A DNA stretch of 64,000 nucleotides from positions 45,322,001 to 45,386,000 of the forward strand of contig CM114271.1 in assembly GCA_050084515.1 (NCBI GenBank), written 5' to 3'. The translations under genes and the position numbers were made by a program. Source of the stretch: Blasia pusilla (taxonomy: Eukaryota). Position 1 is the first letter of the stretch. Each line of letters begins with the position of its first letter. This document shows, in pieces, positions 1,818 to 56,738 of this stretch. Below the pieces are notes generated by a model that was not told the DNA's origin, ran no database searches, and worked only from the letters and a program-made list of their open reading frames with translations.

Positions 1818-4800
1818 CGATCGGCGGAGATTTCAATGTGAAAAAGTGCTGCAGGAGTTGATGGAACGGAATATTCCTACTGAGGGATGTTATGCGGATT
1901 TGTGCTGCAGAGTGGAGGCTCTCTGTTGGCACGTTTTATTCCTTTCCTGGGGATCGTCTGGGCCGAAAGGATGATGTTTGTCTACAAGTGAGCTTCAACA
2001 TGATCCGCATCGCGTTCAGGTGATGCTGTTGGCGAACTGAGGAGCTTTGACTTTTAGATCCGTCCCTGAAGACCCCGATCACAATCGAGAGAACTTTAAA
2101 CAAAAACTGCTCCCTGTCTTGATCGTAAGCGCATAGTACGTCGTACCCTAATGCCTATTTCATCGGCGGCGACCATTGAAGTGAAGGATCTTGAATGACC
2201 CTGACTCTGTTCGATTAATGGGAGGATACGCAGAGTCTGTAGGGTTTGTATGCGAACAAAGTCGGTCCGGGAGGTTGGGAAGTGTAGAGGGGCGGGTCCG
2301 CCGGTCGGGGCCGGTGTTCTTGAGTCGAGGGGAAGGTGAGACGTGACGGGTTTGAAGAAATGGCCGAACATTGCAACATTGCAGAGAATATGCCTACTGG
2401 AGTAATGGTTCGTCCGGAAATGTCACGTGGAAAACAGTAAGCATTTAATCCTGAACGATCAGATGTGATTCTCTGAGTCGGATTCGGATGTTTCTGACTG
2501 ACGGCATCTGTGATCTGACCACGGACCGGCGAAGAACATGCTGGTACGATCGATTTTCGGTAATCGATCTCTAGTGATTCTCTACCACCATTCTACGGGA
2601 AGCTCTTGAAGGAACAAATCCTGTACGTGATAAGGTACAATCGGCAAGTAGCACGTTGTTCGCAATCCGAATTTAGTGAATCCTTGCAAGTCAGACCGAT
2701 GTCACTCATGGGAAGCACTGTATGTGAAGGAGTGCATTTTGTATCCATCTCGGAAATTCCATGAACGCGATGCCCGACATCTGTCGTAGCAGTGACTTTA
2801 TGTGATCACAGCGAAGACTGGCAACGGTCTGCCCAATCTCGGTGATGCAAGATATGCAACTCTTCGTCAGAAACATCTGAATCTGACTCGGCGAATCACA
2901 ACTGGTCGTCGACAGACTCGACTTTTACTGCCGGCCCCATCTCCCTCTCCCCCTATGCCTCAAAATCGGTCGGCTTTTTGAAGTCTCAGCCTTATACAAC
3001 CGACGTCTTTTGGAAGTCTGCCATGCGGGTACCATTCCACAGTTCGTCGGCCAAGCTGCCATGTAGAGTGGATAGATACTGGTCAGGTCTAATTAGTCAT
3101 CGAGGAGTCTCTTGGATGTTTGTGCATTGCAGGAGACTGAACATTAATCTACGAAACATGAAGGTCTACATCGACACTAATTCAAGTGCACGAATTCACA
3201 CTTTCCTTCGTGCTTCCTAATCGGTTCCAGAGAAGGACGAGTTGGTGTGGCACTGGTCGGTCATCGTGGAGCGACGTTGGCAGCAGACGGTTGTCAATGT
3301 AATTCACAGTCTCTCCTGAGTTGAGCGGCGAAAAGACCTCGAAGTCTAACACGTACTGGAACGCTCACAGGCAAAGATTTGTAATCATCCATCTCACAGA
3401 TCTCTTTCAGTCTGGATCTGCGACTTAGCAGACCTACTACTTGAGCCGTGAAATGCCAGAACCACTTTGGTAATGTGGAACTGAAGAGGGAACATGTCAA
3501 AGCTGAGCTCCTGAGAAGGCCTGTACAAGACGCCTCCAGAAATGTGCCAGACAATTGTGTGTCACCATTATCGAATTGAATTGGCTGGCATTCTCAAATC
3601 GAGGAGCAAACAGTAAAGCCTAAGGAACAGAATTTCACGGTCACCAATCAGTGATGCGTGATGACTGGTTGCTTGCCTAAGAGTGGGGACAAAGGGGTTT
3701 CTCTCATCCCTTGTATAGGTACTGAGATTTCAGTGTTCAAAAGCGTCACACTCCAAGTCACTACAAGATTTCAAAGCAACTACGCGTCATTGCAAGAGAG
3801 ATCAGTAATGAAATCTGCCAATCTTCAAAACCATTGCACTTCAAGTCACTTAATGCTCAAAGCTTTTACAGTTCATTGAATGAGAGTTCGGGAAGAACGG
3901 AGAAAATTTCGTGCTAGACATCGGATTTTTTCGTGTGAAAGCTGCCACTCGTGTACGTTTTTGGTGGTGTTATTGATGTCGGCAATGTTCGTGCTCAAGA
4001 TCTTCGATTACGGTAAACATAGAAACCATGCTCAAATTCGTGCAATATGACAGCCCCTAAAAAGTGTGATGTATGTACAGAAAATACCTATCAATCATAT
4101 CCGTTCCTTTCTTGTCTAGAAAGGAACGTTTCTTATCTGATAACCTCGTGGAAACTTCACAGCAATCATTGAAGCTCGCGATTGAAGTCTCCATTCAATC
4201 GCTTACTTCTTCTCCCTACTCGATCCTCAAATACGAACTTTGCCGTACTTGTTCTACTATCGATAATCATGATCGCAATACTATGGGACGCATTCCCATC
4301 ACTCTCCCGTAAGTTTGACCACCTCCGCAAAGAATACGACTCTTGTTCGGTGGCCTCATGATCATGGCGACAGTCAAACCTTGAATCTTGAGAAGTTGAG
4401 GACATCGAAGATTTAGGCGCCTCCGCAAGGAATCAATTGTGCACACCGTGCTAAGAAGCAAACAATCTCACAAGGGACCTCTCACGGGTGAGGTGAGGTG
4501 AGGCATGCATGCAGCGCGCATTTTCTGAGACACGGAAGAAAAAGTCTTCAGAAGAGCTTAACCGGAACAGGATGTGGAGTTTTGGCCACGAAGAGAAATC
4601 ACTGAACGTATTCTGAGGTTGTGGTGAGGCAGTTCAAGCAAGTTGATCTCTTGTTTTCGTGTCGGAGAATCCGCCGTGACGCAAGTGATTGGGATGGACG
4701 TCTGTTCGTCTGCACAAGGCAATACGATGGCCACCATGGCAGACATAATATCCCATAGAGTAATTGGTGGAGTTTCTCCAAATTGAGGAATGTTACAGTG

Positions 4801-21700: not shown

Positions 21701-22896
21701 CAAACCCGGGCACGACACAGATGCTGCACCTTTACAAAGCTTCGGATGCAAAGATGCGGGCGGCGAGATCGGCTGCCACGACACGAACCTTCATCAGCCC
21801 TGAGCTGTGAGGCCAGATCGTCGCGTTAAGAATGATCATTTCTCATCGACCTCATTACCGATTCCAAGCATGCGGTGTGCTTCCTGTCACCGGCTGTCTG
21901 CAAAGCAAAACCCGTCGAAAGAAACCCTAAATCAAACAACTCTAACATGGAGGGAAACCGCAGCTGCACTTTGTCGTTTCTTCAGGAACTCTCCTGGGAA
22001 ATGGGGAGTAACCAACTCGTTCCGTTTGGCTTCAATCAATAGGAGGGGATCATCCGGAGGACGGGTCCTACCGGCGCCGGTGTTTTAATGTGACTGCGTC
22101 AAGTGCCGGGAATGACAAGGTTTTTCTTACATGAATACTAGCTTCTCAATATCACTATCACCCGTGTGATATTCAAATTTTAAAATGCATATGATATTTT
22201 TTTCCTCACTTTAATTGAACTTCCTCTTATAGTGACATGTGTTAGTCTTCTAACACATTTAATCTTTTTTTAATTATATAACAAGTGTACGGTCATAATT
22301 AGTAAGTTTTGAGTAGTAGGGAAACTTCAATTGGATAATACCGGTTGGTAATTAATACTAGGCATGCCATGGTGTGAACATATTATAACAGCCTTGAGGT
22401 TTTGACTTTTTGAGTCCCCCTCTTTTGTACTTCCGATGGGTTTTCCATCACGCGTTTTTATCGAAATGCATCATTCTTTCTTATAATAGTTAATGGTGCT
22501 TTTGTGTGGTTTGTTGTATTGTGTATGTAATGATCATATTTTATGTTGAAAATTTGGAGTCACGAAATTGTGGGAGAATTTTTTGCAATGGATTGGGAAG
22601 CAAGATAAGTATGAACTTAAGATGTGATAAGATTTATAGTGTACAATTATGTAAAAATTTGACATAATGGCTTATTTTAATGACATACTTTGACATACAT
22701 AGTTAGCGAGAGCTACAGAGTAGTATTATGTTGTTTAAGTACTACTGAAGAAAACAATGAGCGATAAATAGAGTATATGGTATTGAAAAGTGTAAACTAG
22801 AAACATGTCATAGCACACATTTTAAGTGATAGATAGTTCAGTGTTGTTTAAGGAGAGCAGTGGTTGAAATATTGTAGATTGCAAGTGTATGAAAAT

Positions 22897-23024
22897 TGTC
22901 GTCCGCATACACATCGTTACACAACAAACATCGATGTCGACAAACATACACACAAACACGCACGATCCCATGCTAAGTCATGGTATCCAAATAACGAGAC
23001 AAGAAATACCAAAATATCTCCAAT
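22897..23024 (-). repeat. Copy 1 terminal repeat Y (128 bp)
   Basis: Direct repeat of 23532-23659, 25601-25728 and 26245-26376. Confidence 0.92.
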
Positions 23025-23529
23025 TAAAATAGGATCCAATCTCTCTCAACACCATAACTCTCAAATGTGTGCACTCTCACATGTCTCTTTCAATGTCAAA
23101 TCAAACCCACTTCTCCGAATGAGAGGCTTTACACTCACAAGACAAGCAAGACCATAGCTCTTCCGCCTCATGTCAAGAAGTTCAACAAAGATAGAATGAG
23201 CTCTCAAGCTCTCTCTCTCTCCTTGAGGTACACCCCCTTCCCTCTCCCAAGCTCTCTTCTCGATAATCTATGCTCGCAGGTCACCTCCTTGGCTCTTGAC
23301 CTGCTGTAGCGGGTCAAGGGCCACTTCCCAAAGTAGAAAGTCAACTCTACCAAATATAACTTACCCAAAATACTTCGTTTCGGCTCCAAATGATCCAAAA
23401 CAAAGGGAAAATCTGCTCTCAGATTTCCCGGGACCTCAACAACTCATCCTCGACCTCTTGAGTCTGTCCTCCCCTACTCGAGAAGGCGCTCTATCTGATC
23501 TCTCCGATCTATCCTAGAAATTCGTGAAA
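23025..23529 (-). repeat. Copy 1 LTR-like repeat X (about 505 bp)
   Basis: Homologous to 25728-26242 and 34979-35492. Confidence 0.92.
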
Positions 23530-23531
23530 AT

Positions 23532-23659
23532 TATCGTGCGCATACTCATCTTGACACAACATACATCGTTGTCGACAAACATACACACAAATACGCACGA
23601 TCCCATGCTAACTCATGGCATCCCAAAAACGAGACAAGAAGTACCAAAATATCTCCAAT
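23532..23659 (-). repeat. Copy 1 internal repeat Y'
   Basis: Second copy of Y, separated from X by 2 nt (AT). Confidence 0.9.
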
Positions 23660-23830
23660 CGCCACCATAGTTGGTGGTTAGGTCCCTCTAAATCCAGATA
23701 GCCATCTATCCCTACCTACTATGACATACATCTCTCGCACGCTAAGAGCAAAAAGGCAGGGTGCTCATGTGGCCCCATCGTTAGTCGCCTTCTTGTCATC
23801 CATGTCACAAACACAAGTCGGAATCTACAA

Positions 23831-25070
23831 CTACCTACCCTTTGTACATGTGGGACACATCCATCGTCCCTCAAGAACCGTAGTGAGAGGTATCGTTAGA
23901 CATGCCATATGCCACCCTCTCGAACACCCATCATAGACTAGCATAATGGATGCACCACATGCGGAACCACACAACATACATCGCAATCTTATAGGAACTA
24001 CTGCTAAGCTCTGATCAATTGTACCGTCAATGTTAGGAAGGTGACATGGTGCACAGTTACGCATATGGTTCTTCCAAACCATACCATCGCGTCGCTCTAA
24101 TAAGAGAACACCTGAAGGCAAAATCTCATGCACTCTCATGCGCTCTGCAATCACATACAACGTGGTGGGTGCCGTCTGCTGCAAGTAGACATAGTCTCCT
24201 TGATGAAACCTCCGGATAGTAGCTCGATAATCACCTCCTCCAATAAACGCATACCTCAATGTATCCCGATGCTGCGTAATCGCCAAGTTCTCAAACGCCA
24301 TGGGCATCACTCTCGAAATAACTCAGCCCTCTGAGAACATGCTCGCATCCATATATCAAGGTCATCTAGGTTCAACACCTCACCAACATCTCGACGAATG
24401 GCCGTAGATTAATCTGGCTCTCGGCCATAAAGCAGCAAGCATGGTGAGAAAGATGCTAAGGATGCTTGCCTGCTGAATCTGTATCCCATCGCCAAGCACC
24501 GCAACTCAAGGTCCTAGGTGACCTCTCTGCAAGCCATACTTGCGTAATCCTCTCGTCATCGTTTGCACAACCCTCTCTGCTAGTCCATCCGCCTCAAGAT
24601 GATCTTCGGAAGTGGTGCGGTGGTCGATCAGTGCCTGATCACATAAGGCGTGAAACTCCTCGCAAAACTCTGTACCGTGGTTTGTCAACACCTTAGCTGG
24701 TATACCGTAATGACTTAGCACTCAATCTAGGAAGGCATACGCTACACCCTCACTTGCTTTGTCAAGCAATGCAACCAACTCTATCCACTTAGAGAAGTGC
24801 TCGACCATCCCCAATACATAACGACTATGGCGCTCCATCAAAAGCAAAGGTCCTTCAAAATCCAAAACCCATCTATAACCTAAACGATGCTCGGACTCGA
24901 TCACACACCATGCACCTGGCAACAAACTTTTGAACGTCAGTCTGCATGCCTTGCCACCAATATTGTATTTGGAGCAAGTTGTACGTCCGCTTCACTCTGA
25001 AATGACCCAACTCCTCGTGGGCATGACACACCAAGCGTGCTCTTTGCGAAGTATGAGGCACTACACGCAC
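23831..25070 (-). pseudogene. Copy 1 integrase (HHCC + DDE core) with C-terminal PHD finger
   Basis: HAHEELGH..YWWQGM..CMVC; RWVLDF; VLTNHGTEF; ADGLAER; CMLC..(Y)DGC.RGWHMACL..GRWMCPTC. Confidence 0.92.
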
Positions 25071-25600
25071 TTTTCCATCCTCCCAAACTCAAAATGTATG
25101 TATCCCCTCCCATCGGAATCGTCTGGCTTGTTGTAAGATCCAATCCCCCTCTCTAGCACCCATTGTGCTCACAACGTTGCTACTATGCAAGTAATCCAAG
25201 ACCACTCCATCGTCGTGAATGTCTCGGCCACCTGTTGTTTCCTCAATAGCCTATGGATCTAAGGACTCTCCATCAGACCTCGCTATCAAAGTCTCAGCAA
25301 TGTTGCTCTCCATAGCCAACAAGCCCAAATAGGCTGACGCGTGCCATCGTGACACCAACTCCTCATCACTCTTACCATGCCAACGAGCTCCAATCGCATC
25401 TCGCTAACTCGGGATTAAGTCTCAAACCATCTGCATCCTGGTTGAGCATCCCATGTCTATGCACCACCTGGAAGTCATTCTCGTCCAACAAAAGAGCCCA
25501 CCTCGCAAGCTTCCCTATAAGCTTGTCGGACTCCATGAACCACTTAAGTGACTGATGATCACTAATCATGGTAAAAGGATTGCCGAATAAATAACATATG

Positions 25601-25728
25601 TGTTGTGCGCATACACATCATTATAAAACATGCATCACTATCACCGAACACACACACAAACACGCAAGATCCCATGCTAACTCATGGGATCCAAACAACG
25701 AGACAAGAAGTACCAAAATATCTCCAAT
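25601..25728 (-). repeat. Copy 2 terminal repeat Y
   Basis: TGTTGTGCGCATACAC...AAAATATCTCCAAT, repeated at 26245-26376. Confidence 0.93.
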
Positions 25729-26242
25729 AAAGTAAGATCCAATCTCTCTCTACACCATCTCACACCATACTTCTCAAAGGTATGGACTCTCTCTCATATC
25801 AAACCAAACCCACTCTCCTAATGAGAGGCTTGGGTTACACTCACAAGGCAAGAGACCATAGCTCCTCCGCCTTATGCCAAGAGGTTCAACAAACAGAGAA
25901 TGAGCTCTCAAGCTCTCTCTCCTTGAGGTATACCCCTCCCTTCTCCCAAGCTCTCTCCATGGTAACCTATTCTCCCAAGTCACCTCCTCGGCTTTTGACC
26001 TGATGTAGGAGGTCAAGGGACACTTACCAAAAAATAGAAAGTTGATAATATGCTCAAAATAGTACTTACCTAAAATAGTAAGTTTCTCAATATGGCTCCA
26101 AATGAGCCGAAACGAAGGGGAAACCTACTCTCTGAGGTTTCCCGAGGCCTCAATAGGTCATCCTCGACCTACTGAGCTTGTCCTCCACTACTCACGAAGG
26201 CGCTCTACTAGATCTCACCGATCTATCCTAAAAAATATGACA
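25728..26242 (-). repeat. Copy 2 3' LTR-like repeat X
   Basis: TAAAGTAAGATCC...TATGACA; about 16 differences from 34979-35492 over the first ~210 bp (manual count). Confidence 0.95.
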
Positions 26243-26244
26243 GT

Positions 26245-26376
26245 TGTCGTGCGCATACACATCGCTACACAACATATACATATCGTTGTCACCGAACACA
26301 CACACAAACACACACGATCCCATGCTAACTCATGGCATCCAAAAAACGAGACAAGAAGCACCAAAATATCTCTAAT
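26245..26376 (-). repeat. Copy 2 internal repeat Y'
   Basis: TGTCGTGCGCATACAC...ATCTCTAAT, separated from X by GT; preceded on the sense strand by a PPT-like TAGGGGAGCG (26386-26377). Confidence 0.92.
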
Positions 26377-26559
26377 CGCTCCCCTAGTTGATGGTTAAGT
26401 CCCTCTAACTCAAGATAGCCATATATCCCTACCTACCATGACATACATCTCTCGGACGCTAAGAGCAAGAAGGTCGGGTGCTCATGTGGCCCCATTATTA
26501 GTCGCCTTCTTGTCATCCATGTCACAGACACAAGTCGGAATGCAGAACTACCTACTCTA

Positions 26560-26700
26560 TGTACATCTGGGACACATCCATCGTCCCTGAGGAACCCTAG
26601 TGACAGGTGGCGTCAAACATGCCATATGCGATCCTCTCGAACACCCATCACAGATTAGCATCGTGGCCGCACCACAGGCAGAACCACACAACATACAACG
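26560..26700 (-). pseudogene. PHD finger (C4HC3) at the integrase C-terminus, copy 2
   Basis: Manual translation RCMLCGSACGAATMLICDGCSRGSHMACLTPPVTRVPQGRWMCPRCT. Confidence 0.92.
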
Positions 26701-26759
26701 CAAGCCTGCAGGAACTATTGCTAAGCTCGGATCTTATGTACCATCAATGTCAGGAAGGT

Positions 26760-27860
26760 GACATGGCGCCCAGTTACGCACATGGTCCTTTCATACCATA
26801 CCATCGCGTTCCTCCAGCAAGAGAACACCGGATGGCAAAACGTCACGCACTCTCAAGATAGTGCGCCCTGCCGTCATATCCAACGTGGTCGGTGGCGTCT
26901 GTTGCAAGTAGACATAATCTCCTTGATGAAACCTCCAAATAGTTGGTCGATAACCACCACCCCAAATAGTCGCATACCTCAACGTATCCCAATGTTGCGC
27001 AATCACCAAATTCTCGAATGCCATGGGCATCACTCTTCGAAAGAACTCAGCCCTCTGAGAACATGCTCGCATCCATACATCAGGGTCATCAAGGTCCAGC
27101 ACCTTACCAGCATCTCGATGAATGGCCGCAGGTAAATCTGGCTCTTGGCCATAAAGTAGAAAGTACGGTGGAAAAGATGCTAAGGATGCCTTCCTGCTTA
27201 ATCTGTATCCCATCGCCAACCATGGCAATTGGAGGTCCCAATCTCCTAGTGGACCTATCTACAAGCCATACTTGCGTAAACCCCTCTTCACCGTCTGCAC
27301 AACTCTATCCGCTAATCCATCCGCCTCAGGATGATCTCGCAAAGTCATGCGGTGGTAGATCAGCGCCTGATCACACAAGGCCTAAAACTCACCGCGAAAC
27401 TCGGTACCTTGGTCTGTCAACACCTCAGCCGATGCGCCATAATGACTCAACACTCTATCAAGGAAGCCATAAGATACTCCCTCACTCGCTTTGTTAGGCA
27501 ATGCAACCAACTCAATCCACGTCGAGAAGTGCTCGACCATCACCAACACATAACGACTGTGACGCTCCGTCAAAGGCAAAGGTCGTGCCAAATCCAAACT
27601 CCATCTATACCCTAAGCCCATGATTGGTAATGGATGCAACTGTGGAGTCGGAGCATTGAATGATGCTCGCACCCGATCACATACCATGCACCTGACAACA
27701 AACTGTTGAACGTCAGTGTGCATGCCTCGCCATCAATATTGAATCCGGAGCAAGCTGTACGTCCGCTTCACCCCAAAGTGACCCAACTCCTCGTGGGCAT
27801 GCTACACTAGTCGTGCTCTCTGCAAAGGATGCGGCACTACGCGTACTTTGCCATCCTTCC
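26760..27860 (-). pseudogene. Copy 2 integrase
   Basis: CMVCDRVR..LHPLPI..RWSLDL..VMVEHFS..VLTDQGTEFRGEF; PPYFLLYGQEP. Confidence 0.95.
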
Positions 27861-28149
27861 AAACCCTCAAAACATGTGTCCCCTCCCAACGGAACCGTCT
27901 AGCCCGCTGTAGGATCCGATCCCGCTCTCTAGCACCCACGGTGCTCGCAAGGCTGCCAGTACAAAGGTACTCCAAGACTACTCCATCATCATGAATATCT
28001 CGGCCATTTTTCGTCTCCTCACTGACCTTGGGATCCAAGGGCTCTCCATAGCCAACATGCCTAAATAGGCTGACGCGTGCCATCTTGGCACTGACTCCTC
28101 ATCACTCTCTCCATGCCATCGAGCTCCAAACGCATCTTGCTCGACTCAA

Positions 28150-28573
28150 GCATGGATTACGACTCAACCCATCTACATCTTGGTTGAGCATCCCAAGTCT
28201 ATGTACCACCTAAAAATCATACTCCTGCAACAACAGAGCCCATCTCGCAAGCTTCCCTGTAAGCTTGTCGGACTCCATCAACCACTTTAGTGGTTGATGA
28301 TGAGTGATGATGGTAAAGGGGTTGACGAATAAGTAACACCTGAAATGCGCGACAGCCCACATCGCAGCCAAGCACTCACCCTCATACGAGCTGTACTTCA
28401 CCTATGTTGTTTGAGCGGCTAGCGGAAGCCACCACCAACTCTCTACCCTCATCATCATGCTGAGTGAGTACCGCTTCAAGCCCCAACATGCTCCAATCTG
28501 TGTGCAACTGGAAAGGACGCCCCCCGATCGGTCTCCTCAAGATGGGCGAGGACGTCAACATGTCCTTGAGCAA
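28150..28573 (-). pseudogene. Copy 2 RNase H (Ty3/gypsy type)
   Basis: FQLHTDWS..AVLTQ..VVASASRS; YSSYEGECLAAMWAVAHFRCYL..HQPLKWL. Confidence 0.93.
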
Positions 28574-28599
28574 CTAAAATGCTTGCTCCTGCTTATCCT

Positions 28600-29410
28600 T
28601 GCCACTCGTGATCCATCTTGGTCAACAAGGTTAGTGGCTTCGCAATCGAATCTGAATCCCTTGAGGTATCGCCGATAGAAGTTCGCCAATCCCATGAATG
28701 CGCGAACACGACTCACATCTATAGGGCGTGGAATGCGTGAGATAGCCTCTACCTTCGTCTGTTGAACACCAAAGCCCCTTGGGTATATCGTATGATCCAA
28801 GTACTCAATCTAGTCGTAGAAGAACTTGCACTTGCCTGGATGTAGCTTCAACCCATGTAATTGCAATCGTCGAAACACCTCCTCTAGATGTCACTTATGC
28901 TCCTCAATCGTGGCGCTAAAGACTACGATGTCATCAATATAACACCTAGCAAAATCCAGACCACCCAAGATCCTATCCATGACCCTCTGAAACTTAGCCG
29001 GGGCGTTCTTTAACCCAAATAGTAAGAACCGCCACAAGTACAAACAATCCTTCCCGTGAGGATCGATGCCCCAAAATGCCGTCCTCTGCGTATCCTCCAA
29101 TTTGATAGGCAGCTGATGGTATCCTGCTCTCCAAATCCAATGAACTAAAGACCTTTGCATGACCAATCACATCAAAGATCTCCTCAGGGGTGGGCATGGC
29201 ATACCTATCGGACTTTTTCTGCCGATTGATAGGTCGGTAATCCCCACACATCCGCCTATCCGTCTAGTTGCCATGCACATCCTTCTTGGCGGGCATGACA
29301 GTGGCAGATGCATACTCCCCATACGACATCTCCACTTGTCTTGCTCCGACAAGTCCTGGCTCCTACTCTGAATCAGAGCCCTCTCCATATCACTCTACCT
29401 GTAGGGTCGT
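28600..29410 (-). pseudogene. Copy 2 reverse transcriptase
   Basis: CGDYRPIN; FSSLDL; GYHQ; FGLKNAPAKFQRVMD; YIDD. Confidence 0.96.
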
Positions 29411-29899
29411 CGGAAGATCGGCGTATCACTTGACAACTCAATGCGGATCCCCGGTCCCTTCAGCGTACCCAGATCCTCCATGCTAAACGCAAAGTAGCTC
29501 TTATAACTCCTGAGGAACTGATGTATTCGGCGCCGCTCTCCTCCTATCAACTTAGGGCCCATATCTGGCTCCAAAGTCTCTATTGTCACTACAGTAGGAC
29601 TCTCCGGCAAGGGTATCGATGGTTGCTATGGTGCAACCCTGTCTCAAACAACAACACTCGGCCGCTCTCCTGTAGCAAAGTGCAAACTTTGATCTCCTCC
29701 ACATGCAGTGCCCAAAACCACGCTCCATGTTGTGGCAATCATCTCTTGGCGTACGTGCAAAACATCCCAAGAAGTCCAAGGGTGTCTCTCCCGATCTCCC
29801 CTGGTGTGTAGATCTCCTCGGGTCTCGCCCCCAGCCATTGCCTCCACCATCTTGGTAGGTATGGGGCTACCAACGCAACCGTTGTGATCTGTCGCAATC

Positions 29900-30540
29900 T
29901 CATTCGGCACTCCTCAGCCACTTCCAAGCTAAGGATCCATATCAAGCAGTTCAGGTCCATCGCCTCACCCAAAACATGGCATTGTGATGCCTCTGACACT
30001 GACGGTACTGCCGTCACTCTTGTGGAAAATCCCATCGCTCGCTCTCTCTCGTCGGCATTGGGCTCCACCAACCGCTGAACCTGGTCATCCCAAACCAAGC
30101 CAAGACCGGCCTCCCTGTATGCATAGGAAGCGGGAAAACTCACAAACATGGGCAAGGCTACCCGTGGCGTGCCTACCTTGTTGACCACAGTCAACGGTGG
30201 TCGATCATCGTGCCTCATTGCCTGTGATCGACGACCTGGATCCAGAATGGAATCCACTAACAAATGGGAGGGGCGCTCCACTCTCGCATATGCCCTGCGT
30301 AACACCCCATGGGACACCAAGTTGGTCCACCATAAACTCTGGTATCCCTGTACTGCGGACGCAGACAATAAGTCGGGAAAACGTAGGCGTAACTGTGCCA
30401 CATGTCGTAGTGAGATGCGCCTCGTAACATCATCACTCTCCATACACAAGTACTTCTGTACTCGCACTCCTGTCTGCAAAACAGCAACTAACCCGGTGTT
30501 AATCCCTCCAAAGAGATCTAACACTCGAATACCCTCATCC
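29900..30540 (-). pseudogene. Copy 2 C5 cytosine DNA methyltransferase domain (DNMT3-like), internally deleted
   Basis: Motif I IRVLDLFGGINTG, motif II YLCMESD, LWWTNL, motif IX EPNADERERAMGF, motif X HVLGEAMD. Motifs IV-VIII absent. Confidence 0.88.
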
Positions 30541-30889
30541 GGGATACACCATACAATGGCTGAGGTATCCAAGGTTGTCATCGTAGGACTGCCTGCTACC
30601 TCGGGTTCCTCAGACCCATCACGCTTTGGTGCAAACGCCTTGCTCCACGCGGTCTGCACGTGCTCATCTGCCAGTCGTCAAAGCTCCTCAGTCGAGCCCC
30701 ACTGCGGCACCCCTCCTCCATGGAATGATGCGGCTACCTAACACTCCTCTCCATAGAAATGTCAAGAACGGGAGTATCCTCTGCATGGATATGTCCCTCA
30801 ATCAAATCACTAGGCCAAGTGATGGCACTGCTAAATGCTGCTAAGGTCGCCATCTCTCCTGGCCGTTGCTCGATCACTGCACCTGTGAA

Positions 30890-31334
30890 TTGAACAGGTA
30901 ATGAGCTAAGGTGCCCATCACCTGACTGCTATCTTGGTCTGTAGGACGTTGACTCCTCCCTATAATCCAGGGAAAAACCCCATCGAGTATAACATTGGTC
31001 CACCAACCAAGACGTCGTAGGACTCTACATCAGTAACTATCGCCTTGGCTCGCACCACGACCTCCTGTCAGGAGATATAGTCTGTGGTACTCCCTCCACC
31101 CAAGGATGTGTGTATCCGAAATGGACAACGCTCCACATCGGCTCTCGTCAAGCCCGAACCTCTAAATGACGCTTTCCCCAAGATCAGGGGTTGCGCTCCT
31201 AAATCCAACAAGACGGGTTGCGGACTAAAAGCTCTACCTCCATGACTCACCAACTGGAAGACCTCTCCTCGGTTATCCAGCAACACAACACCAGGAGAAG
31301 CCATGGCACGCTCTATCGCGGGTCTAGCGGGCAT
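30890..31334 (-). pseudogene. Copy 2 aspartic protease
   Basis: VLLDLGAQPLILG (D-S/T-G-A-like site) and downstream YDVLVGG. Confidence 0.8.
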
Positions 31335-32059
31335 CTCCCCATCTTAGCAACCGCAGCGTGACATGAATGTGACGTGGACGGCCCGAGCATCCGCTCCAAG
31401 GGCAGGTCCATCACCTCCTGTGCAATCACCTCTGAACGTGATGCAGGAACTCCAACTCCACGCTCACATAGCGTAGCGGCCAGCCGAAAAGCCTCGGCGG
31501 GCGTACCCCCGACGTCATAACATCGAAAGCAAAAAATCAAGGAGCGCGGTACACAATGGTGGTCATCCCCAACAACGTGCTCGACACATGCCCCTCGTGA
31601 GCATCAACAATAGGAGTCGTCGCACTCGCTTCTCCCATCGCCCTCTGTGCATGCAGACCAAAAACATCACCAACTCTCTAGGAACTCTGATCAGGACCCA
31701 TCGATGGGGTCCTCATCGCCTCGGACAACGTGAAAGACTAAAGAAGCCTAGTCTCTTTCCTCTCGCTGTGGATCCAACTCTGCGGTTGCTCCACGAGTCA
31801 CAACTGCGGCTGCCTCCATCTGGGAAACCCTGCACATCCAACCAGGATCCTCCATATCTCTGGCTGCTCCATATGATGTCGATGCCACGAATCCGGCATC
31901 GGGTAATCTCAATGCCAGAGCGGCAATCTGCTCCAATAGCTGATGTATCTGAACAGCCATCCTAGCCTCACTCCCAACATCTCCCTCGACGCGTCTAGGA
32001 AGTAGGACTCTACCTCCTCCACGGGCAGCTCCACCACCGTGTCGAGCAACTCCAGCTCC

Positions 32060-33286
32060 TCATCCCCCAATGGGACCACCTAGTACACGATCTCTAGGCC
32101 CACCCGGACCGGCTACTCGCTCTGGTGCCCTCTCCGGCCCTCGGTCCGCACGTAACTCAAGATGTAAACTGAAACACCTAGCGCGTGTATGACCATACCT
32201 CAGACAATAGTCACACTGATAACCTCCTGGTGTAGCACCATCTCCTCCTCCATGTTGAGGCATATGTCCATGACCCTGACGAGTGCAATGGCGCTGATGA
32301 TGGGCTACACCATATGACCAACAAGTAATAGTAGGCGGTTGCTGCTGAGCCACATATGAAGGCGCAGGTCTCTTTGGCATGGTCTCCCGGTATCCTCCAT
32401 GAGTTCGTGGTGCCATAGTCGACCTATCTTGGAGTCCACATTGCTGCACACATGGTGCAGACAATCGTGACTGCTCTCGCCCAGAACCCATGGTGGCTAC
32501 ACTCTCCTCCACCATGTTGCGCTAAATATTCTCAACGGTCCTAAAAAAATCTCTCAACGTAGGGGAGGTGTTAATAAGAAGCACCCCTCCCGCACCCGTG
32601 TCTGCAGGGTCTGGTCCAACATCGAGTACCATGACTAGATAGCATGAGCCTCTGTCACCCCCCTGAGTGACGTTGATCAATCGGCGCAAGCGAGTGTAAG
32701 CCTCACACAAACTCTCACCCAGGCGCCTCTGGAAGTCGTGGATGCTCCGCAACTTCTCCGTCCGTACCCCCTGGTACCTCGCGCTCAACTCAACAAACAA
32801 CTCAACCACCGAGTTGAACCTGGGACGAACCCGACTAGACGGTGCAACTGCTCCCGTGCAAGTGACCTTTCCTAAAACGTCACAAGTGGAAGAGGAAGTA
32901 GCCTCTCCTGACTCATCTGGGAATGGCTCCGTCCATGACACATAATGTGGGTCATATAAGAGCCTCCACGCCTCGATCTCACGTGCATATCTCTGAGAGA
33001 ACTCATGGTAATGGTCCATGGGCGCCCCCTCTAAATGCTGGAATATACCGTTCCATGCTTTAAATGGGTTGAACTCTCTAGAGTTCCTGGCCCGTTGGAA
33101 GTTGCACCAACTCCTAAACTCTGCTATGAAATCGTGCAATTCAATCGTACCTACTGCACTTGAAAACCTACGCGGGCCTCTACCCCGGTCCTCCATCTTG
33201 TACGCCCAACTGGTAGGACCACTCACAATGTGTGGTGATGTGCTCACAAACTCCTCTACACCCTCCCCCTCGTCTGACAATGACAA
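32060..33286 (-). pseudogene. Copy 2 gag with zinc knuckles
   Basis: 254-aa ORF (QHLEGAP..FQRRLGESLCEAYTRLRRL) followed by CWSYGVAHHQRHC and CDYCLRYGHTRARC. Confidence 0.85.
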
Positions 33287-34963
33287 AGAAGGAGGTCAAG
33301 GTGGTCTCTCACGTAGAGACCCTCAAAACCTTGCGCCACTCCCCGTAAAACCTCTAGAGCTACTCTCGGGTTCACCACCTCGCCTCTCAAAGTCCCGAAC
33401 GGACGCCATGATGACCCTCGTGCCCCTCTCACTCAATCACTCTCAACCTCACAACTAATCCCTCAATCACTCATCCCAAACATGCGGCACTTGATCTACA
33501 CTCTCCCTCCTCGAGACGTGTAACGTGCGGCAACAAGCGGCGTGGCGCGGCAAATCGACCAAGCTATCATCTCATCGACAACCTACCCTCAACTCTGGAC
33601 ATCCCACACAGGTCTATGTCCCTTAAACCACATACATAAATGATGCTCTCAACATCCACACAACCCAATATCCCCAAATAAACTACCCAAATCCTAGAAT
33701 CCCTCACGCGTGCAGGGTAAAGGACCAGAATGGGTAACCTAAACACATGTTGATGTCGCTCCTCAGCAACTGCAAATCTCGACCCCAACTCGGTCGTGGA
33801 GAAAACTACTCCAATCAGCAAGTCATACTCCTCCCGTATCGACATTGCTCAAAACTCCTCAATAGACAGTGTGGTTCCAGCGGAACGGTGCAGCGTTGCA
33901 GGCGGCACGGAACGGTTACGGACGGCACGGCCCTTGATGGTGGGATGCAACACTCGACGGCATACCCTCCACAATCAACAAAAAACCCACACACTGCTCC
34001 ACAATGATGAAGCGGCTTCGCGATCGAGAAGGTGCAGTGCAGCCACGAGCGGCACGGCGTGTTGCGGCTACGGGCGTCACGGCACAGTACTCGATCGTCA
34101 TCGAGCGGCTACTAATCACAACATAGCGGCATGAAATCAAAACTCAAACACCATAATTGGAGTTCATGTGCCATCATAGGTTGATGATGAACTGCAATGA
34201 TGGTGGCGGCCAAAACAAAATACGTGGTGGCGACGCAAATCAGAGAATCAACGAATGTCGTGGAAGACCCGCCACTCCGTAACGACGGCAATGGCAACCA
34301 AAGGGTGGACAACGGATGGTGGACCGTTGACGGTTGACCATTGATGGTGATGGCCAACTGGTGAGGTTGATGGTTGACCATTGATGGTGACTATGACGGC
34401 GACTGCCGCCGCCGGTGTGGCGGTTGCTTTAGGGTTTGAACAATTTAACCCTAAAAATCGCCTAGCAATGGAAATTTTGCAAGATTGACCATAACGTTTT
34501 GCTCGCAACTCCAAATTGCACATTGTTTGTTGCACAGCGTGCACAGCTTCACGATCTACAAGAATATCAAAAAATATTCAAAATCAAACATTATAGTAAA
34601 AATTGACAGGGACTGTCGTAAAGCCCAATGTCTCTTTCTCCTACACAAAATTTGGCAGCGCTTCCCCGCTGATTTCCCCAACGAAAATGTAAAACATGTA
34701 AAAACACAAATCAGAAAGCTACATGGTGCTCCCGAGAGCACTGGCATGGGGTAACCCATTATCAATCTCTATCAAAGATTGGGCAGCGCTTCCGCGCGCC
34801 ATTTTTTCACAAGAAAAATCGGCAAATACAAAGAATAATCAAAGCAGCCCTTGCTCTGGTGAGCACTCCCATGAGCCGGTGAACGGGGAACACGGTACCC
34901 AACCTGAAAAAATAGCGAGTGACCAACGAGCTTCCCCATGAAGCTCTCTCACTCTGTCATTCT

Positions 34964-34978
34964 CTCATTCTCTATTTG
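34964..34978 (-). promoter_or_regulatory. Candidate self-priming primer-binding site
   Basis: 34964-34979 is 15/16 complementary to 35140-35155 inside X and abuts the end of X; no TGG-type tRNA PBS is present. Confidence 0.65.
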
Positions 34979-35492
34979 TAAAGTAAGATCCAATCTCTCT
35001 CTACACCATCTCACACCATAACTCTCAAAGGTGTGCACTCTCTCTCATGTCAAACCAAACCCACTCTCCTCATAAGAGGCTTGGGTTACAATCACAAGGC
35101 AAGGAACCATAGTTCCGCCGCTTTATGCCAAGAAGTTCAACAAAGAGAGAATGAGCTCTCAAGCTCTCTCTCCTTGAGATATACCCCTCCCCTCTCCCAA
35201 GCTCTCTCCATGGTAACCTATTCTCCCAAGTCACCTCCTTGGCTCTTGACCTGATGTAAGAGGTCAAGGGCCACTTACCAAAAATATAAAGTCGATCATA
35301 TACTCAAAATGGTACTTACCTAAAATAGTAAGTTCCTCAATATGACTCCAAATGAACCGAAACGAAGGGGAAACCTGTTCTCTTAGGTTTCCTCGGGCCT
35401 CAGCAGGTCATCCTTGACCTAATGAGCTTGTCCTCCACTACTCACAAAGGCGTTCTACTAGATCTCACCAATCTACCCTAAAAGACATGACA
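34979..35492 (-). repeat. Copy 2 5' LTR-like repeat X (no adjacent Y)
   Basis: Homologous to 25728-26242; sense strand begins TGTCATG; TATA-like GGGTATATC about 28 nt upstream of Inr-like CTCATTC. Confidence 0.95.
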
Positions 35493-37494
35493 TCTGAAAT
35501 ATGCGAAAGCCCACACCGTCAGCCAAACAGTCACCCTCATACGAGCTATACTTCGCCTCTGCAGCGTTGTTCAAGCGACAAGCGTAAGCCACCACAAACT
35601 CTCTACCATCATCATCTCTTGCTCATCCCCTCAGTGCCACTCCTTATCCATCTTGGTCAGCAAGGTTAGCGGCTTCGCAATCGAATCGAAACCCTTGACG
35701 TACCGTCGATAGAAGTTTGCTAATCCCATGAATGCACAATCTTGACTCACATTTGTAGGGCGGGGAATGCGTGAAAAGCCTCTACCTTCGTCCTTTGCAA
35801 ACCAAGGCCTCCTAGGTATATCGAATGTGGTCGTAGAAGAACTTGCACTTGCCCAAATATAGCTTCAGCCCATGTAAGTGCAATCGTCAAAACACCTCCT
35901 CTAGATGTCGCTCATGTTCCTCAACCGTGGCGCTAAAGACTACGATGTCATAAATATAACACCTAGCAAAATCCAGACCTGCGAAGAACCTATCCACGAC
36001 CCTCTGAAACTCATCCGGGGCATTCTTTAACCCGAATAGTAAGAACCGTCACTCGTACAAACAATCCTTCCTGTGCGGATCGATATCCCAAAATGCCGTC
36101 TTCTGCATGTCCTCCAATCTGATAGGCAGCTGATGGTATCTGGCTTGCAAATCCAATGAATTGAAGACCTTTACATGCCCAATCGCATCAAAAATCTCCT
36201 CACGGGTGGGCATGGCATACCTATGGGACTTTTTCTGCCGATTGATAGGTCGATAATCTCCACACATCCACATATCCGTCCAGTTGCCATGCACATCCTT
36301 CTTGGCGAACATGACAGTGGCAGATGCATACTCTCCATGCAACATCTCCACTAGTCCTCCTCCAACCAACTCCTTGCTCCTACTCTGAATCAGAGCCCTC
36401 TCCATGTCACTATACTTGTAGGATCGTCAAAAGATCGGCGTGTCACTCGACAACTCAATGCGGATCCTTGGACCCTTCAACGTACATAAATCATGCATAC
36501 TAAATGCAAAACAACTCCTATAACTCCTCAGCAATTGATGTATCCAGTGTCACTCTCCTCCTGTCAACTCCGGGCCATCTCTAGCTCCCAAGTCTCCATC
36601 GTGACTATGGTAGGACTCACCGGCGCGGCTGTAGATGGTTGTTATGGTGCAACCCCATCTCGGATAACCAAACTCCATTGCTCCCCTGCAGCCAATTACA
36701 AATCGGATCTCTCTGTGCAGTACCCAAAACCATGCTCAATGTTGTGGCTACCATCTCCTGGCGTGCCTGCAAAACATCCCAAAAAGTCCAAGGGTGTCTC
36801 TCATTATCATCCCTGGTGTGTCGATCTCCTCGGGTCTTGCCCCCATCCATTGCCTCAACCGTCTCGGTAGGCATGGGGCTCACCAATGCAACAGCTATGA
36901 TCTGACATTGCTCAGCTACTCGTAAGCTAAAAATCCATGTCAAGAAATGCAGGTCCATCTCCTGACCCAAGACATGACATCCTGATAGTGACGGTATTGT
37001 CGTCACTCCTATGGGGAATCCCATGGCTCGCTCTCCCTCATCCGCATTGGGCTCCACCAACCCTTGTACCTGATCATCCCAAACCAAGCAAGGTCTGGCC
37101 TCATTGAATGCATAGGAAGCACAAATACTCACCAATGTGGGAAAGGTTTCCCGTGGCATGCCAATCCTCTTGACCATAGCCAACGGCGGTCGATCATCGT
37201 GCCTCACTGCTTGTGATCGACAACCCGGATCCAATATGGAATCCACCAACAACTAGGAGGGGCGCTCCACTCGCGCATATGCCCTCCATAACACCTCATG
37301 TGGGACCAAGTTGGTCCATCAAAGACACAAGCGGTGTGCTCTATAACCTACACTCGCCGCATCTAACAACATTGTCGTGCTTATCCATGCGCGCACCTGA
37401 TGTGCACTTTTCACCACGTGGGACCTCGAATCGCCCAAAACCGGCACATTCTCGAGAATGTATGCTGGAGGACGAGACTGATGCTCCTGTATGT
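35493..37494 (-). mobile_element. Ty3/gypsy element copy 1, 5'-truncated part (RNase H, RT, DNMT)
   Basis: RT CGDYRPIN..FNSLDLQARYHQ (36049-36405); collinear with copy 2 at 28340-30330. Confidence 0.92.
36890..37494 (-). pseudogene. Copy 1 DNMT3-like domain, motifs VI-X
   Basis: Manual translation PPAYILENVP (ENV at 37453-37445), LLDAASVGYRAHRLCL*WTNL, EPNADEGERAMGFP, HVLGQEMD. Confidence 0.9.
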
Positions 37495-38800
37495 AAGCAC
37501 AAATTTCTAATGTAATCCTATTGATGTCTCAATTCTGCACCCAAAAGATAATGTGGTAGTTTAAGCTGCCTCGTACCTAATGACATAGTCTAGAATACGT
37601 CCTAATAATTGAAGTCCAGAGAATATATATGGAATGAAGAAGGTATGCAGTTTTGTGTGAAAAAATTGTGCACACTTAGAAGGCCCATCACGCCATGTGA
37701 ATTCTGGATTGAATCTCTGGAGGATGGCTTCTACATGTGCTATCTCATGCCATCGTGTTGCGGAGACCTCATCAGTTGTGAGAGTTAGAAAAAAGTGAGG
37801 CATACCCCATTTATGGACCATTTCTTTTAGGTCTTTTAAGTGTCTCCTATGCCAACATGGGCTACCAGGTATTTGTGGACTAAGAGAGTGTTTAGACAAA
37901 TGGTGGTACAAGTCTTCCTCACACAGATGGGGTTTTTCCTTCCTTAGTCTGTCTAGGTCCTTATTTACAATGAAGGAATGAGATGTTGAACACACCGATA
38001 TCGAATTTTGTAACTGGTACATGACTAGAATGTGCAGTTTGTATAAGGAAAATGGGCCGAATATTTGTTTTGATGTGAGCGGCATATAATCCGAGAATGA
38101 GCCAACACCATGAAAGTATCCTTTTAAGTAAGGGAAAAGAAACAGGAATATCCCAATTTCTATAGTAAGTCGTTTATTAGTAGATGCACATACGGAATCA
38201 GTAGGGAAGTGCTCTCTACTATTGGCTTCTTTTTTTAATACTATACAACCATTGTCAAAGATGTCTGAGGATTTTTTTGATCTAGTTGGGAGACAATATG
38301 TAATATAATGTAAAATATTCAACTCTGGCTGGTATGGGTTAAATTACATGCTATTTGTTACCTGGCCCTTTTCTTGGGCAGCTTTGAGTATAGATGTTAC
38401 AACTCAGCCAGAAGAACAACTTATCCAGCAGATGGTTTAGGTAATTCAAGCAGACACTTGTAGTCCTTATACAGATCATTGACAACGAGGTTTGTGACCA
38501 AGACTTGTTTGATGCTATCTATTATGGACTCAATTTTTTCCCTTGAAGCTGATTCAAGGTTCCAAGAAATAAGAGGGGAATCTAACAGTGATGTAGGGTT
38601 GAAAAACCCCCTATGGAAACCATTGAATTTGCTAACAATACCAATTTTGGAGTCCACGATCGAGAGAAGCTATAATACGAAGAGGATTGGACGATAAAAT
38701 GCTCCATATATAAGTAGGTGTCATGTACACATTCAAGCCAGTCCGAGGTTGGTCTGTTGTACAGAGATCGCATGCATAGAATTCTCCTCCTGGGGGATTA
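37495..38800 (-). pseudogene. Helitron2/Helentron-type Rep N-terminal remnant (no helicase retained)
   Basis: FLFLFPY, IPGSPCWH..LKDLKEMV..GMPHFFLTLTTDE..W.E (motif 1), YVIRYE../GSLNYHIIFW (motif 2, frameshifted). Confidence 0.82.
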
Positions 38801-55443: not shown

Positions 55444-56738
55444 ACCGTCCAACCAGGGCGCGGGGTCTATGGTCGCAAGGCTACGACAGGCACTACTCAA
55501 TGAGTACAGTCTCTCTCTCTTGAAGCTACCAAACTTCAGCCAAACCAATGATGGTCCGTGGCGGTCTTCTGCAGGTTTGAGAAGGATATGCTGGCATTCT
55601 CAGGGTGCACATTCGGACTTTCAGAAGAAGAGGCAGAAGAACTGAAGCTGATCCGTTATAATGTGACCCGATGGAAGGAGAAAGAAATCGACCCAATTGC
55701 CCGAAGGCTTTCCGGTGGCTGCCCACTGACACCACATGAAATCGGATTCATGCTGAGGGCCATGGGATACCCACGGAAAACTATGATTTACGTCGCTGCC
55801 GGGCAGATATACGGCGGGGAAGAAAGAATGAAGACTTTCACAAGCTTGTTCCCTAACGTGGTCACCAAAGAAACAATTGCAACGGCGGAGGAACTGGCTC
55901 CGTTCGTCAAATATCAAAATAGACTCGCAGCCATCGACTACATGGTTGCGGTTGAAGCTGATGTGTTCGTCCCGTCCTACGATGGGAATATGGCCAGAGC
56001 GGTTCAAGGTCATCGACGATTCCAGGGGCACAAAACTACTCTAATTCCTGACAGGTGAGAAATCGTGGTATTCCACTGCAGACTTTCTGTCCCGTACCCC
56101 GAGGTCCTGTCGTTCCATGATCTCGCGTTGCCCTCTTGGCTATCGTGAACGACACAAACCACGTCGGCCATGGAAAAATGTGCCATCCGCGTAGGATGGG
56201 TCACTCAGAAGTCCATCTGGGTGAGATTGCTCTTGAGGACCTCTTCATACGCTGGGGCCAAAGAATTACGAGTTTCGGTAGAGAACTTGCTTGCTTGCTT
56301 GCTTGCTGAGATACGTCTTTCTCAGCGTTGTGTTTGTGAGGGCTGATGTGCGTGTGGCTTCCATGCAGAGTGGGGTTGGTGAAGCTCTTTGACTCGTATC
56401 ATCAATCGGAGATCGATTGGAGTACGCTACAGAAACAGGTGGTGAAAACACACCGGAATCGACAGGGAGCTCCACACTACAGGAAAGTCCTATCCCCATC
56501 TCGAGCCAAACTGGAAGAGAACTTTTATGCCAACCCTTTGCCAGGATGCATATGTGAGACTGACTCTACATCACAGACGCAACAGTCAACAGACGGACGG
56601 AAATCAATGCCTAGAGTTGATGGCCACTATTATTTATCGATTGTTTCCTCGATAGATCCTTCTCCTTCTAGATTCACCCCAATTGTGTATAGCAGTCAGA
56701 TTCCTGCTCCTAATAACCTCAGTGCGACTTGTGCGTGA
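51201..56738 (+). CDS. O-fucosyltransferase family protein (GT106/PF10250, plant pectin-related type II Golgi glycosyltransferase). Exons 51201-51581, 51930(or 51912)-52271, 52567-52633, 54232-54302, 54503-54591, 54709-54841, 55014-55243, 55575-56054, 56369-56738.
   Basis: All GT-AG introns phase-consistent; N-terminal TM segment; motifs NGGLNQMR, DMVAVAR.MNATLV.P.LDH.S.W.D.S, DSRLANN, QRLRC, LHLRFEKDM, GGCPLTP.E, AIDY.V, GNMARAVQGHR, FYANPLPGCIC. Confidence 0.95.
52642..53092. repeat. Intronic cluster of a (CT)n-associated ~70-80-bp repeat, including an 81-bp tandem duplication (52671-52832)
   Basis: At least 4 copies of GGGG(T/C)(G/C)TATGGTC(A/G)CAAGG(C/T)TAC separated by CT tracts. Confidence 0.85.
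55413..55520. repeat. Further copy of the (CT)n-flanked repeat, in intron 7
   Basis: (CT)n-TACACCGTCCAACCAGGGCGCGGGGTCTATGGTCGCAAGGCTACGACAGGCACTACTCAATGAGTACAGT-(CT)n. Confidence 0.88.

Follow-up and report, generated by a model that had tools for sequence, protein, structure and literature searches.

Two lineages of protists or algae are known to harbor retrotransposons that carry the type of enzyme normally silencing them: KnitGypsy-Dnmt3 in the alga Klebsormidium nitens and SymbioDIRS-Dnmt3 in the dinoflagellate Symbiodinium (de Mendoza et al., 2018, Nat Commun 9:1341; PMC5890265). That paper reports Ka/Ks below 0.2 on the DNA methyltransferase (DNMT) domain of such retrotransposons and few copies in K. 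nitens, and an A-coding region-B-A-B arrangement is described for DIRS elements, with the layout in the figure legends. Its Discussion leaves the purpose of retrotransposon DNMTs open and notes that one of them was inactive on DNA in yeast; methylation of the cDNA or of the fresh insertion is argued for the DIRS elements. Here we analyzed a 64,000-nucleotide stretch of the Blasia pusilla genome (GCA_050084515.1, contig CM114271.1, positions 45,322,001 to 45,386,000; hereafter the window), in which a prediction made from the letters alone had placed a DNMT3-like cytosine methyltransferase in a Pol polyprotein. Two broken copies of a single Ty3/Gypsy-type retrotransposon family lie on the minus strand of the window, the younger nested in the older, with the domain order gag, protease, DNMT3-like domain, reverse transcriptase (RT), RNase H, integrase and PHD finger. 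Our best joint explanation, to which we assign a probability of about 0.8, is that these are two dead copies of a DNMT3-carrying Ty3/Gypsy family of the KnitGypsy-Dnmt3 lineage, whose enzyme is proposed to methylate the element's own cDNA or insertion.

The family shares with KnitGypsy-Dnmt3, as presented in PMC5890265, a Gypsy-type Pol, a non-rearranged DNMT3-like domain, the order gag (CCHC)-protease-DNMT and the A-coding-B-A-B layout; the order is seen in P0162, which from its name and architecture we infer to be one of the published K. nitens copies. Purifying selection is a further likeness (published Ka/Ks < 0.2; medians of 0.44-0.53 here, on mostly dead copies). It departs from KnitGypsy-Dnmt3 in that its nearest relatives live in land plants, in an identity of 37% to the K. 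nitens protein, in a very high rather than low copy number, and in its PHD finger, a term with no mention in the main text of PMC5890265. SymbioDIRS-Dnmt3 likewise has a DNMT3-like domain in Pol, the A-coding-B-A-B layout and two coexisting domain orders within one lineage, which the bryophyte-type and chlorophyte-type orders described below parallel. However, SymbioDIRS-Dnmt3 integrates by a tyrosine recombinase; the present family instead encodes a DDE integrase (rve) and is bounded by TG..CA ends and target duplications of 4 bp (comparison with the published description). With a DNMT3-like domain in a Gypsy-type Pol, an A-coding-B-A-B layout and homology to the K. nitens protein, the family is by these comparisons of the same lineage as KnitGypsy-Dnmt3. 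Since the odd repeat layout and the domain order are common to them, the comparison suggests one old lineage rather than repeated captures in green plants.

The kind of element has thus been known since 2018 from KnitGypsy-Dnmt3. Judging from full-text searches, several of its traits look new: that it occurs in the genomes of land plants, a model liverwort among them; that it is abundant and transcribed in the present host; that it bears a PHD finger; that TG..CA ends and target duplications accompany the A-coding-B-A-B layout; and that chlorophytes have a second domain order. We found no report of such elements in land plants in these searches or in passages of PMC5784723, PMC9516144, PMC6453930, PMC9998398 and PMC11244446, although supplements from 2018 and 2025 may list bryophyte copies. 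The original prediction was right about DNMT-carrying retrotransposons in algae and dinoflagellates (PMC5890265). Its suggestion of a range extended to embryophytes stands insofar as relatives occur in liverworts and Sphagnum; these belong to the same lineage as the Klebsormidium element and do not represent a separate invention.

A DNMT3-like domain within Pol

All the motifs noted in the prediction are present on the pol strand (Table 1). The inner, younger copy retains the S-adenosylmethionine-pocket motif I, the end of VIII, IX and X, in this order, and the outer, older copy retains VI, VIII (with a stop), IX and X. Alignment with intact relatives showed that the inner copy is without residues 111-225 of the intact relative P0001 (about 115 residues, in frame), a stretch covering motifs IV and VI and the first part of VIII. 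In the outer copy the first half is gone, and the alignment starts at P0001 residue 164. Neither copy combines the Pro-Cys of motif IV with the ENV of motif VI: the inner copy has neither, and the outer copy has ENV without motif IV. The absence of motif IV from both copies had been predicted correctly; the cause is deletion in the inner copy and truncation in the outer one. The PF00145 profile scores neither copy, and their identity rests on homology to intact relatives and not on the profile. The 312-residue open reading frame (ORF) of the inner copy had 103 protein matches at E ≤ 1e-3 among 4456 candidates (best 3e-84), many of them with PF00145, and the similarity of its predicted product to methyltransferase proteins is far beyond chance.

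On the DNMT3-like METHYLTRANSFERASE question, intact relatives scored above the PF00145 gathering cut-off in 6 of 7, 4 of 7 and 6 of 6 cases in three sets, so that the profile check proposed with the prediction succeeds for relatives and fails for the window copies (0/2). Against all PDB sequences, P0001 matched DNMT3A (6e-12), DNMT3B (1.4e-9) and DNMT3C (6e-9) and, further down, tobacco DRM (1e-8), DRM2 (1.6e-4), M.HaeIII (3.5e-4) and DNMT2 (0.007-0.02); DNMT1 was not among the PDB matches at E ≤ 1. An AlphaFold model of P0001 from a 21-sequence alignment (predicted local distance difference test score, pLDDT, 67.6; predicted template modeling score, pTM, 0.73) was consistent with this ranking, as the listed Foldseek matches were all DNMT3A, DNMT3B or DNMT3C (E 2.5e-14, target TM 0.73-0.78). 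DNMT3A/B/C thus came first both by sequence and by fold, as the name given in the prediction implies. The motifs run I-IV-VI-VIII-IX-X, as in DNMT3, and are not circularly permuted as in DRM. Together, these results support placing the domain closer to DNMT3 than to DNMT1, DNMT2, DRM or the bacterial enzymes. Although host DNMT3A/3B/3C and plant DRM are its nearest solved sequences and folds, it differs from host DNMT3 in lying inside a retrotransposon polyprotein, in its low identity (about 22% in structural alignments) and in having neither a PWWP nor an ADD domain. Pfam detected neither of these domains in the polyproteins, which carry a PHD finger on the integrase instead.

The catalytic motifs missing from the window are common in relatives. 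Among 181 database proteins, the motif IV Pro-Cys was present in 86 of the 104 rows with letters at that place, ENV in 104 of 136 and FxG in 76 of 88. Within the clade of the window copies, motifs I, IV, VI, VIII, IX and X most often take their canonical form (GWPCQG, ILENVP and ERERAMGF, for example).

The position of the domain in Pol recurs far beyond this window. In P0168, a single ORF of 2318 aa, zf-CCHC (517-533), Asp_protease (784-876), DNA_methylase (966-1208), RVT_1 (1412-1566), RNase H (1629-1757) and integrase (1885-2051) follow one another, and locus L030 has another long ORF, of 1369 aa, with the domain in the Pol position. We also collected metagenome loci (600 pattern matches in contigs, of which 280 encode a relative and 80 were kept). 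The protease lay upstream of the DNMT domain in 69/69 loci where it was seen, RT lay downstream in 57/58, and the whole protease-DNMT-RT series was visible in 50 of the 80. With the tblastn and Pfam mapping in the window itself, this bears out the predicted location between protease and RT. At the exceptional locus, L061, an RT match precedes the gag match and probably belongs to a neighboring element.

We estimated dN/dS between the 80 loci by the pairwise NG86 method (3160 locus pairs, 1403 with a DNMT estimate). At dS 0.1-0.3 the median was 0.53 for the DNMT domain (989 of 996 pairs below 1) and 0.41 for RT; at dS 0.3-0.7 the medians were 0.44 (296/296 below 1) and 0.33. At dS 0.7-1.5, a bin without RT pairs, the DNMT median fell to 0.12 (38/38 below 1). 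The two window copies compared with each other gave 0.47 over 129 DNMT codons and 0.43 over 275 RT codons. Thus dN/dS among copies, a comparison suggested with the prediction, is below 1 and near the RT value, and by this measure the methyltransferase domain appears to be under about the same constraint as RT.

Layout, ends and insertion of the two copies

Protease, RT, RNase H and a DDE integrase follow in Ty3/Gypsy order, and the inner element as a whole runs A1, leader, gag, protease, DNMT-like domain, RT, RNase H, integrase, PHD finger, B1, A2, B2 (Table 1). The coding part was mapped with P0104, a gag-protease-DNMT protein of Marchantia, with metagenome polyproteins and by a Pfam read-through. 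In self-comparison, 28600-30332 matched 35635-37321 (82%) and 25601-28338 matched 22897-25596 (80%). The piece at 37528-35497 stops at the equivalent of 28336, and that at 25596-22890 starts at the equivalent of 28338. Because the outer sequence resumes exactly across the insertion, both outer pieces belong to one older element that was split by the younger one within its RNase H region. The target duplication of the younger element was first read as ATGT, a reading replaced by CAGA/CATA once relatives showed TGTCATG...GACA ends. The inner copy is dead, with at least 4 frame changes in gag-protease-DNMT, 6 stops in 387 mapped RT-RNase H codons and the DNMT deletion. A CCHC knuckle was recognized by eye in its gag (ORF 32060-32521), and relatives have Asp_protease_2 at the position matching its protease region.

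Table 1. Features of the two element copies, in window positions
Feature	Position	Strand	Basis or remark
Inner (younger) element, whole	25601-35492	minus	self-blastn, junction reading, tblastn with P0104/P0139, Pfam read-through
Repeat A1, 5' terminal, 514 bp	34979-35492	minus	91% identity to A2
Gag, inner copy	31319-33295	minus	tblastn, P0104 residues 9-599; weak Retrotrans_gag match; frame changes break gag
Protease region, inner copy	30761-31334	minus	tblastn, P0104 residues 595-801; two frame changes
DNMT3-like domain, inner copy	29865-30710	minus	motifs I, IX, X and end of VIII
Inner ORF, stop to stop, 312 aa	29739-30677	minus	
Inner motif I, IRVLDLFGGIN	30530-30498	minus	
Inner break, ..VQGYQ / SLWWTNL	30339/30335	minus	in-frame deletion joint
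Inner ERERAMGF	30050-30027	minus	
Inner LGEAMDLN	29972-29949	minus	
RT and RNase H, inner copy	28153-29556	minus	Pfam RVT_1, RT_RNaseH
Integrase, inner copy (H2C2 and rve)	26560-28002	minus	Pfam Integrase_H2C2 5e-14, rve 3e-8
PHD finger, C-terminal on inner integrase	26563-26697	minus	Pfam PHD 9e-10; PDB search
Repeat B1, 131 bp	26245-26375	minus	purine run before; 2-nt spacer and A2 after
Repeat A2, 515 bp	25728-26242	minus	self-blastn
Repeat B2, 3' terminal, 127 bp	25601-25727	minus	self-blastn, junction reading
Target-site duplication, 4 bp	left 35493-35496 (CAGA), right 25597-25600 (CATA)	minus	one mismatch
Outer (older) element, upstream part	35497-37528	minus	C-terminal half of DNMT-like domain and RT
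Outer stretch with AYILENVP ... YRAHRLCL*WTNL ... EGERAMGF ... LGQEMDL	37528-36914	minus	
DNMT-like C-terminal half, outer copy	37510-36908	minus	two stops
Outer ILENV	37459-37445	minus	
Outer YRAHRLCL*WTNL	37345-37307	minus	
Outer stops	37321-37319, 37255-37253	minus	
Outer EGERAMGF	37039-37016	minus	
Outer LGQEMDL	36970-36950	minus	
RT, outer copy	36621-35637	minus	
Outer element, downstream part	22890-25596	minus	RNase H remnant, integrase, PHD, B1, A2, B2
PHD, outer copy	within 23831-24322	minus	
Outer-element repeats	B1 23525-23659, A2 23025-23519, B2 22890-23024	minus	same B-A-B at 3' end

The ends of the element are unusual. Instead of two identical full long terminal repeats flanking the coding part, the layout is A-coding-B-A-B, and blastn at word size 7 found no B copy beside the 5' A1 of the inner element. 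The full A1...B1-A2-B2 series recurs in 5 of 20 longer metagenome loci (L037, L040, L043, L047 and L073) and in part in 6 more. In the window and in the complete loci alike, A begins TGTCATG, B ends ..GACA, a purine run lies 5' of B1 and a two-base spacer separates B1 from A2; the inner element itself starts TGTCATG and ends ..CACAACA. Target duplications of 4 bp surround 3 of the 5 complete metagenome loci. TG..CA termini and 4-bp target duplications are thus present on an element with a DDE integrase and DIRS-like repeats.

The PHD finger at the integrase end has as its nearest solved relatives those of CHD4, PHF12, KDM5A/B (PHD1), DPF3, KAT6A, BHC80, BAZ2A/B, AIRE and UHRF1 (E 2e-15 to 1e-7). 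PHD fingers of this type are readers of the unmodified H3 tail or of H3K4me0. The arrangement resembles that of known elements with a chromatin-reader domain at the integrase end, in that a reader is fused to the integrase; unlike in those elements, the reader here is a PHD finger and is combined with a methyltransferase.

Several features lie beside or between these domains. The leader between A1 and gag (33296-34978, about 1.7 kb) contains short repeated peptide-like motifs, and relatives show a similar gap; DNA read depth is lower there, down to about 380 per orientation at 33784-34067. Next to the cut 5' end of the outer copy, at about 37510-37528, lies an ORF with Helitron_like_N (37561-38343, minus strand, E 9e-14), and the window contains no further upstream piece of that copy. 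The only clear piece of a host gene that we noticed is a plant-type GDP-fucose protein O-fucosyltransferase exon at 55552-56058 on the plus strand (PF10250, E 7e-42). Together with the position of the element in the tree below, it points to a bryophyte as the probable host.

Relatives, abundance and transcription of the family

Named relatives come from liverworts (Marchantia polymorpha, with many gene models including Mp_4g09160 and Mp_8g17980, M. paleacea, Riccia sorocarpa and Calypogeia fissa), from mosses (Sphagnum fallax, S. troendelagicum, S. tenellum and S. jensenii) and from algae (K. nitens, Mesostigma viride, Chromochloris zofingiensis and Haematococcus lacustris). The polyproteins are fused in Marchantia polymorpha, Calypogeia fissa, Sphagnum fallax, Chromochloris, Haematococcus and Mesostigma. 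The K. nitens protein KFL_013780020 matched with a profile E of 6.9e-119 and 37% identity; along it, zf-CCHC is followed by Asp_protease and then by DNA_methylase. The matches of these word-limited searches include no named vascular plant, which is no evidence of absence. Several Marchantia-named database clusters are Pol fragments with the domain, one of them labelled DNA (cytosine-5-)-methyltransferase.

Across 183 rows, the DNMT domain precedes RT in 48, including all bryophyte rows, Mesostigma and K. nitens; it lies between RNase H and integrase in 32, including Chromochloris and Haematococcus, and stands alone in 103. The second architecture, RT-RNase H-DNMT-integrase-PHD, is seen in P0139, P0136, P0151 (Chromochloris, with a G-patch in addition) and P0158 (Haematococcus). 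We built a quick, unrooted maximum-likelihood tree of 76 domain rows, from which 20 near-identical unnamed rows had been dropped beforehand. The window copies were sisters (SH-aLRT 94) within a clade of 25 rows (98), to which all the rows from Calypogeia, Sphagnum and Marchantia belong. One clade of 28 rows (97) was formed by the second architecture, and the K. nitens clade (99) stood apart. In this tree, the nearest named relatives of the family are liverworts and Sphagnum mosses.

We next matched host reads to positions 26400-34900 at 80% likeness or more, examining about 1 in 100 reads of the DNA run. The family accounted for 158,430 of 12,434,590 DNA reads (1.27%). Depth, counting both orientations, was about 1840-2320 over the DNMT bins, about 1900-2350 over gag and protease, and about 3000-3700 over RT and integrase; the DNMT bins thus reach about 60% of the RT/integrase depth and equal gag/protease, with no excess of DNMT-less copies. 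This amounts to about one copy with the DNMT domain in each megabase, independent of genome size. At the deletion joint of the inner copy, the sequence of 889 reads continues behind 30334 and that of 879 reads before 30335 (agreement 0.94 and 0.92), and on the coding strand their ends continue as relatives do on either side of the missing block. The deletion is thus confined to the inner copy or to a minority of copies, and the block is retained in most of them. Several frame breaks of the inner copy also coincide with one-base insertions or deletions relative to most reads.

The family is also transcribed. In three RNA runs, 6553 of 10.13 million, 6341 of 11.97 million and 6922 of 11.05 million reads matched, with first mates on the plus strand at a ratio of at least 10:1 and a depth over the DNMT bins of 50-82 that increases toward the 3' end. 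Because almost all RNA reads are under 95% alike to the inner copy, the transcripts come from other copies. The family is very abundant and transcribed and is not a relic; the window copies are relics of a living family.

Two peculiarities of the RNA reads stand apart from these counts. A joint from 28395 to 29458, which skips 1062 bases of RT/RNase H, occurred in 10, 15 and 8 reads of the three runs and in 0 DNA reads. We dropped its reading as an intron, as this copy has no GT..AG there and the joint has 5 nt of microhomology; it may reflect template switching, or splicing in other copies. Loose ends of RNA reads at 26673, 26753, 27556, 28193, 28305, 28548, 28655 and 29361 (54-83 reads each, agreement 0.96-1.0) suggest one well-expressed relative or hybrid transcript whose likeness to the inner copy stops sharply.

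Finally, the copies bear traces of methylation. C>T and G>A differences in the family reads (566 and 524 places) outnumber T>C and A>G (259 and 266) about twofold, and the observed/expected ratio of CpG in the copies (22890-37528) is 0.72-0.77, with TpG+CpA at 1.21-1.30, compared with 0.90 and 1.04 in the right flank (38400-64000). The excess and the low CpG ratio together indicate that the copies are methylated, by whichever enzyme.

Proposed role and alternatives

Intact copies of the family are very probably catalytically active. In the mechanism that we propose, the DNMT domain would be translated within Gag-Pol and hence packaged with RT and integrase into the particle, where it may act as a de novo methyltransferase on the new double-stranded cDNA or the fresh insertion. 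Both would supply the double-stranded DNA that a DNMT3-type enzyme requires. The PHD finger might direct integration toward chromatin whose H3K4 is unmodified and so keep insertions off active promoters, in the way of the chromodomains of chromoviruses. New copies would then arrive already marked, and could pass as resident methylated DNA or have their own activity damped. That methylation of its own cDNA or insertion is the main role of the enzyme is a tentative proposal, which we hold at somewhat less than even odds.

Several observations weigh against parts of this account. Neither window copy can encode an enzyme, and PF00145 scored neither of them (0/2), either in ORF translations or in read-throughs of three frames with stops set to X. 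The run-on ends at the deletion joint are seen for 30 letters only, and the motif IV codons lie beyond. Only 5 of the 80 metagenome loci are without a stop in the mapped DNMT codons, and most fetched relatives are dead. The pairwise dN/dS values consequently mix selection with neutral decay, which inflates them, and the pairs are not independent of each other. The tree has no canonical DNMT3 or DRM outgroup, so that the label DNMT3-like rests on the PDB sequence and fold rankings. The description of the family RNA as minus-strand, that is, sense, assumes the usual stranded library type.

An active domain might instead have another target, be it RNA or host chromatin, the latter close to insertions or across the genome; or its main benefit might go to the host, through reduced transposition. 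Options of this sort are listed in PMC5890265, whose Discussion includes the retrotransposon DNMT without activity on DNA in yeast. An abundant and transcribed family could conceivably act on the genome in passing, and the C>T/G>A excess and the CpG ratio of 0.72-0.77 against 0.90 show that its copies are methylated, but host DNMTs explain the CpG decay equally well. The place of the domain in Pol, adjoining RT in the 50 of 80 loci with both flanks visible, puts the protein with the cDNA, and we consider another target rather unlikely. It is more improbable still that the domain is a pseudo-enzyme, its DNMT fold kept for a structural or nucleic-acid-binding role without catalysis. This is the reading favored by the chlorophyte-type relatives (RT-RNase H-DNMT-integrase order), in which Glu-Cys-Gln replaces Pro-Cys-Gln in 11 of 32 rows, a substitution that also counts against activity across the family as a whole; the canonical commonest motifs in the clade of the window copies and the frequency of Pro-Cys in the database rows speak for catalysis.

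The remaining alternatives concern origin. Bryophyte elements might have captured a host DNMT3 independently of the Klebsormidium element, and in the unrooted tree the K. nitens clade is indeed separated from the bryophyte clade by other clades. However, both have the same gag-protease-DNMT order and the same unusual A-coding-B-A-B layout, and the DNMTs of the elements are far closer to one another than to solved DNMT3s (6.9e-119 for the K. nitens profile match against 6e-12 for DNMT3A), which leaves a separate capture with very little probability. A chance juxtaposition of a host DNMT3 gene fragment with unrelated retrotransposon pieces would fit a window in which both copies are fragmentary and no single ORF spans protease, DNMT and RT. 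It is refuted, to the point of being barely credible, by the same position in both nested copies, by the consistent flanks in the metagenome loci and by the single ORFs of P0168 and L030.

For the annotation of bryophytes, these elements are a warning that counts of 'DNMT genes' include transposon copies. The relatives in Marchantia polymorpha, a tractable model, make the question of what such enzymes do testable in a land plant. The broadest form of our proposal, that an old retroelement of the green lineage (chlorophytes, streptophyte algae, liverworts and mosses), with permuted A-coding-B-A-B ends, combines a working de novo DNMT with an H3K4me0-type PHD finger on its DDE integrase and is sufficiently active and common in bryophytes to write part of the methylation of its own new copies, is doubtful as a whole. 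If it were true, early land plants would owe some of the methylation of their transposons to the elements themselves and not to the host.

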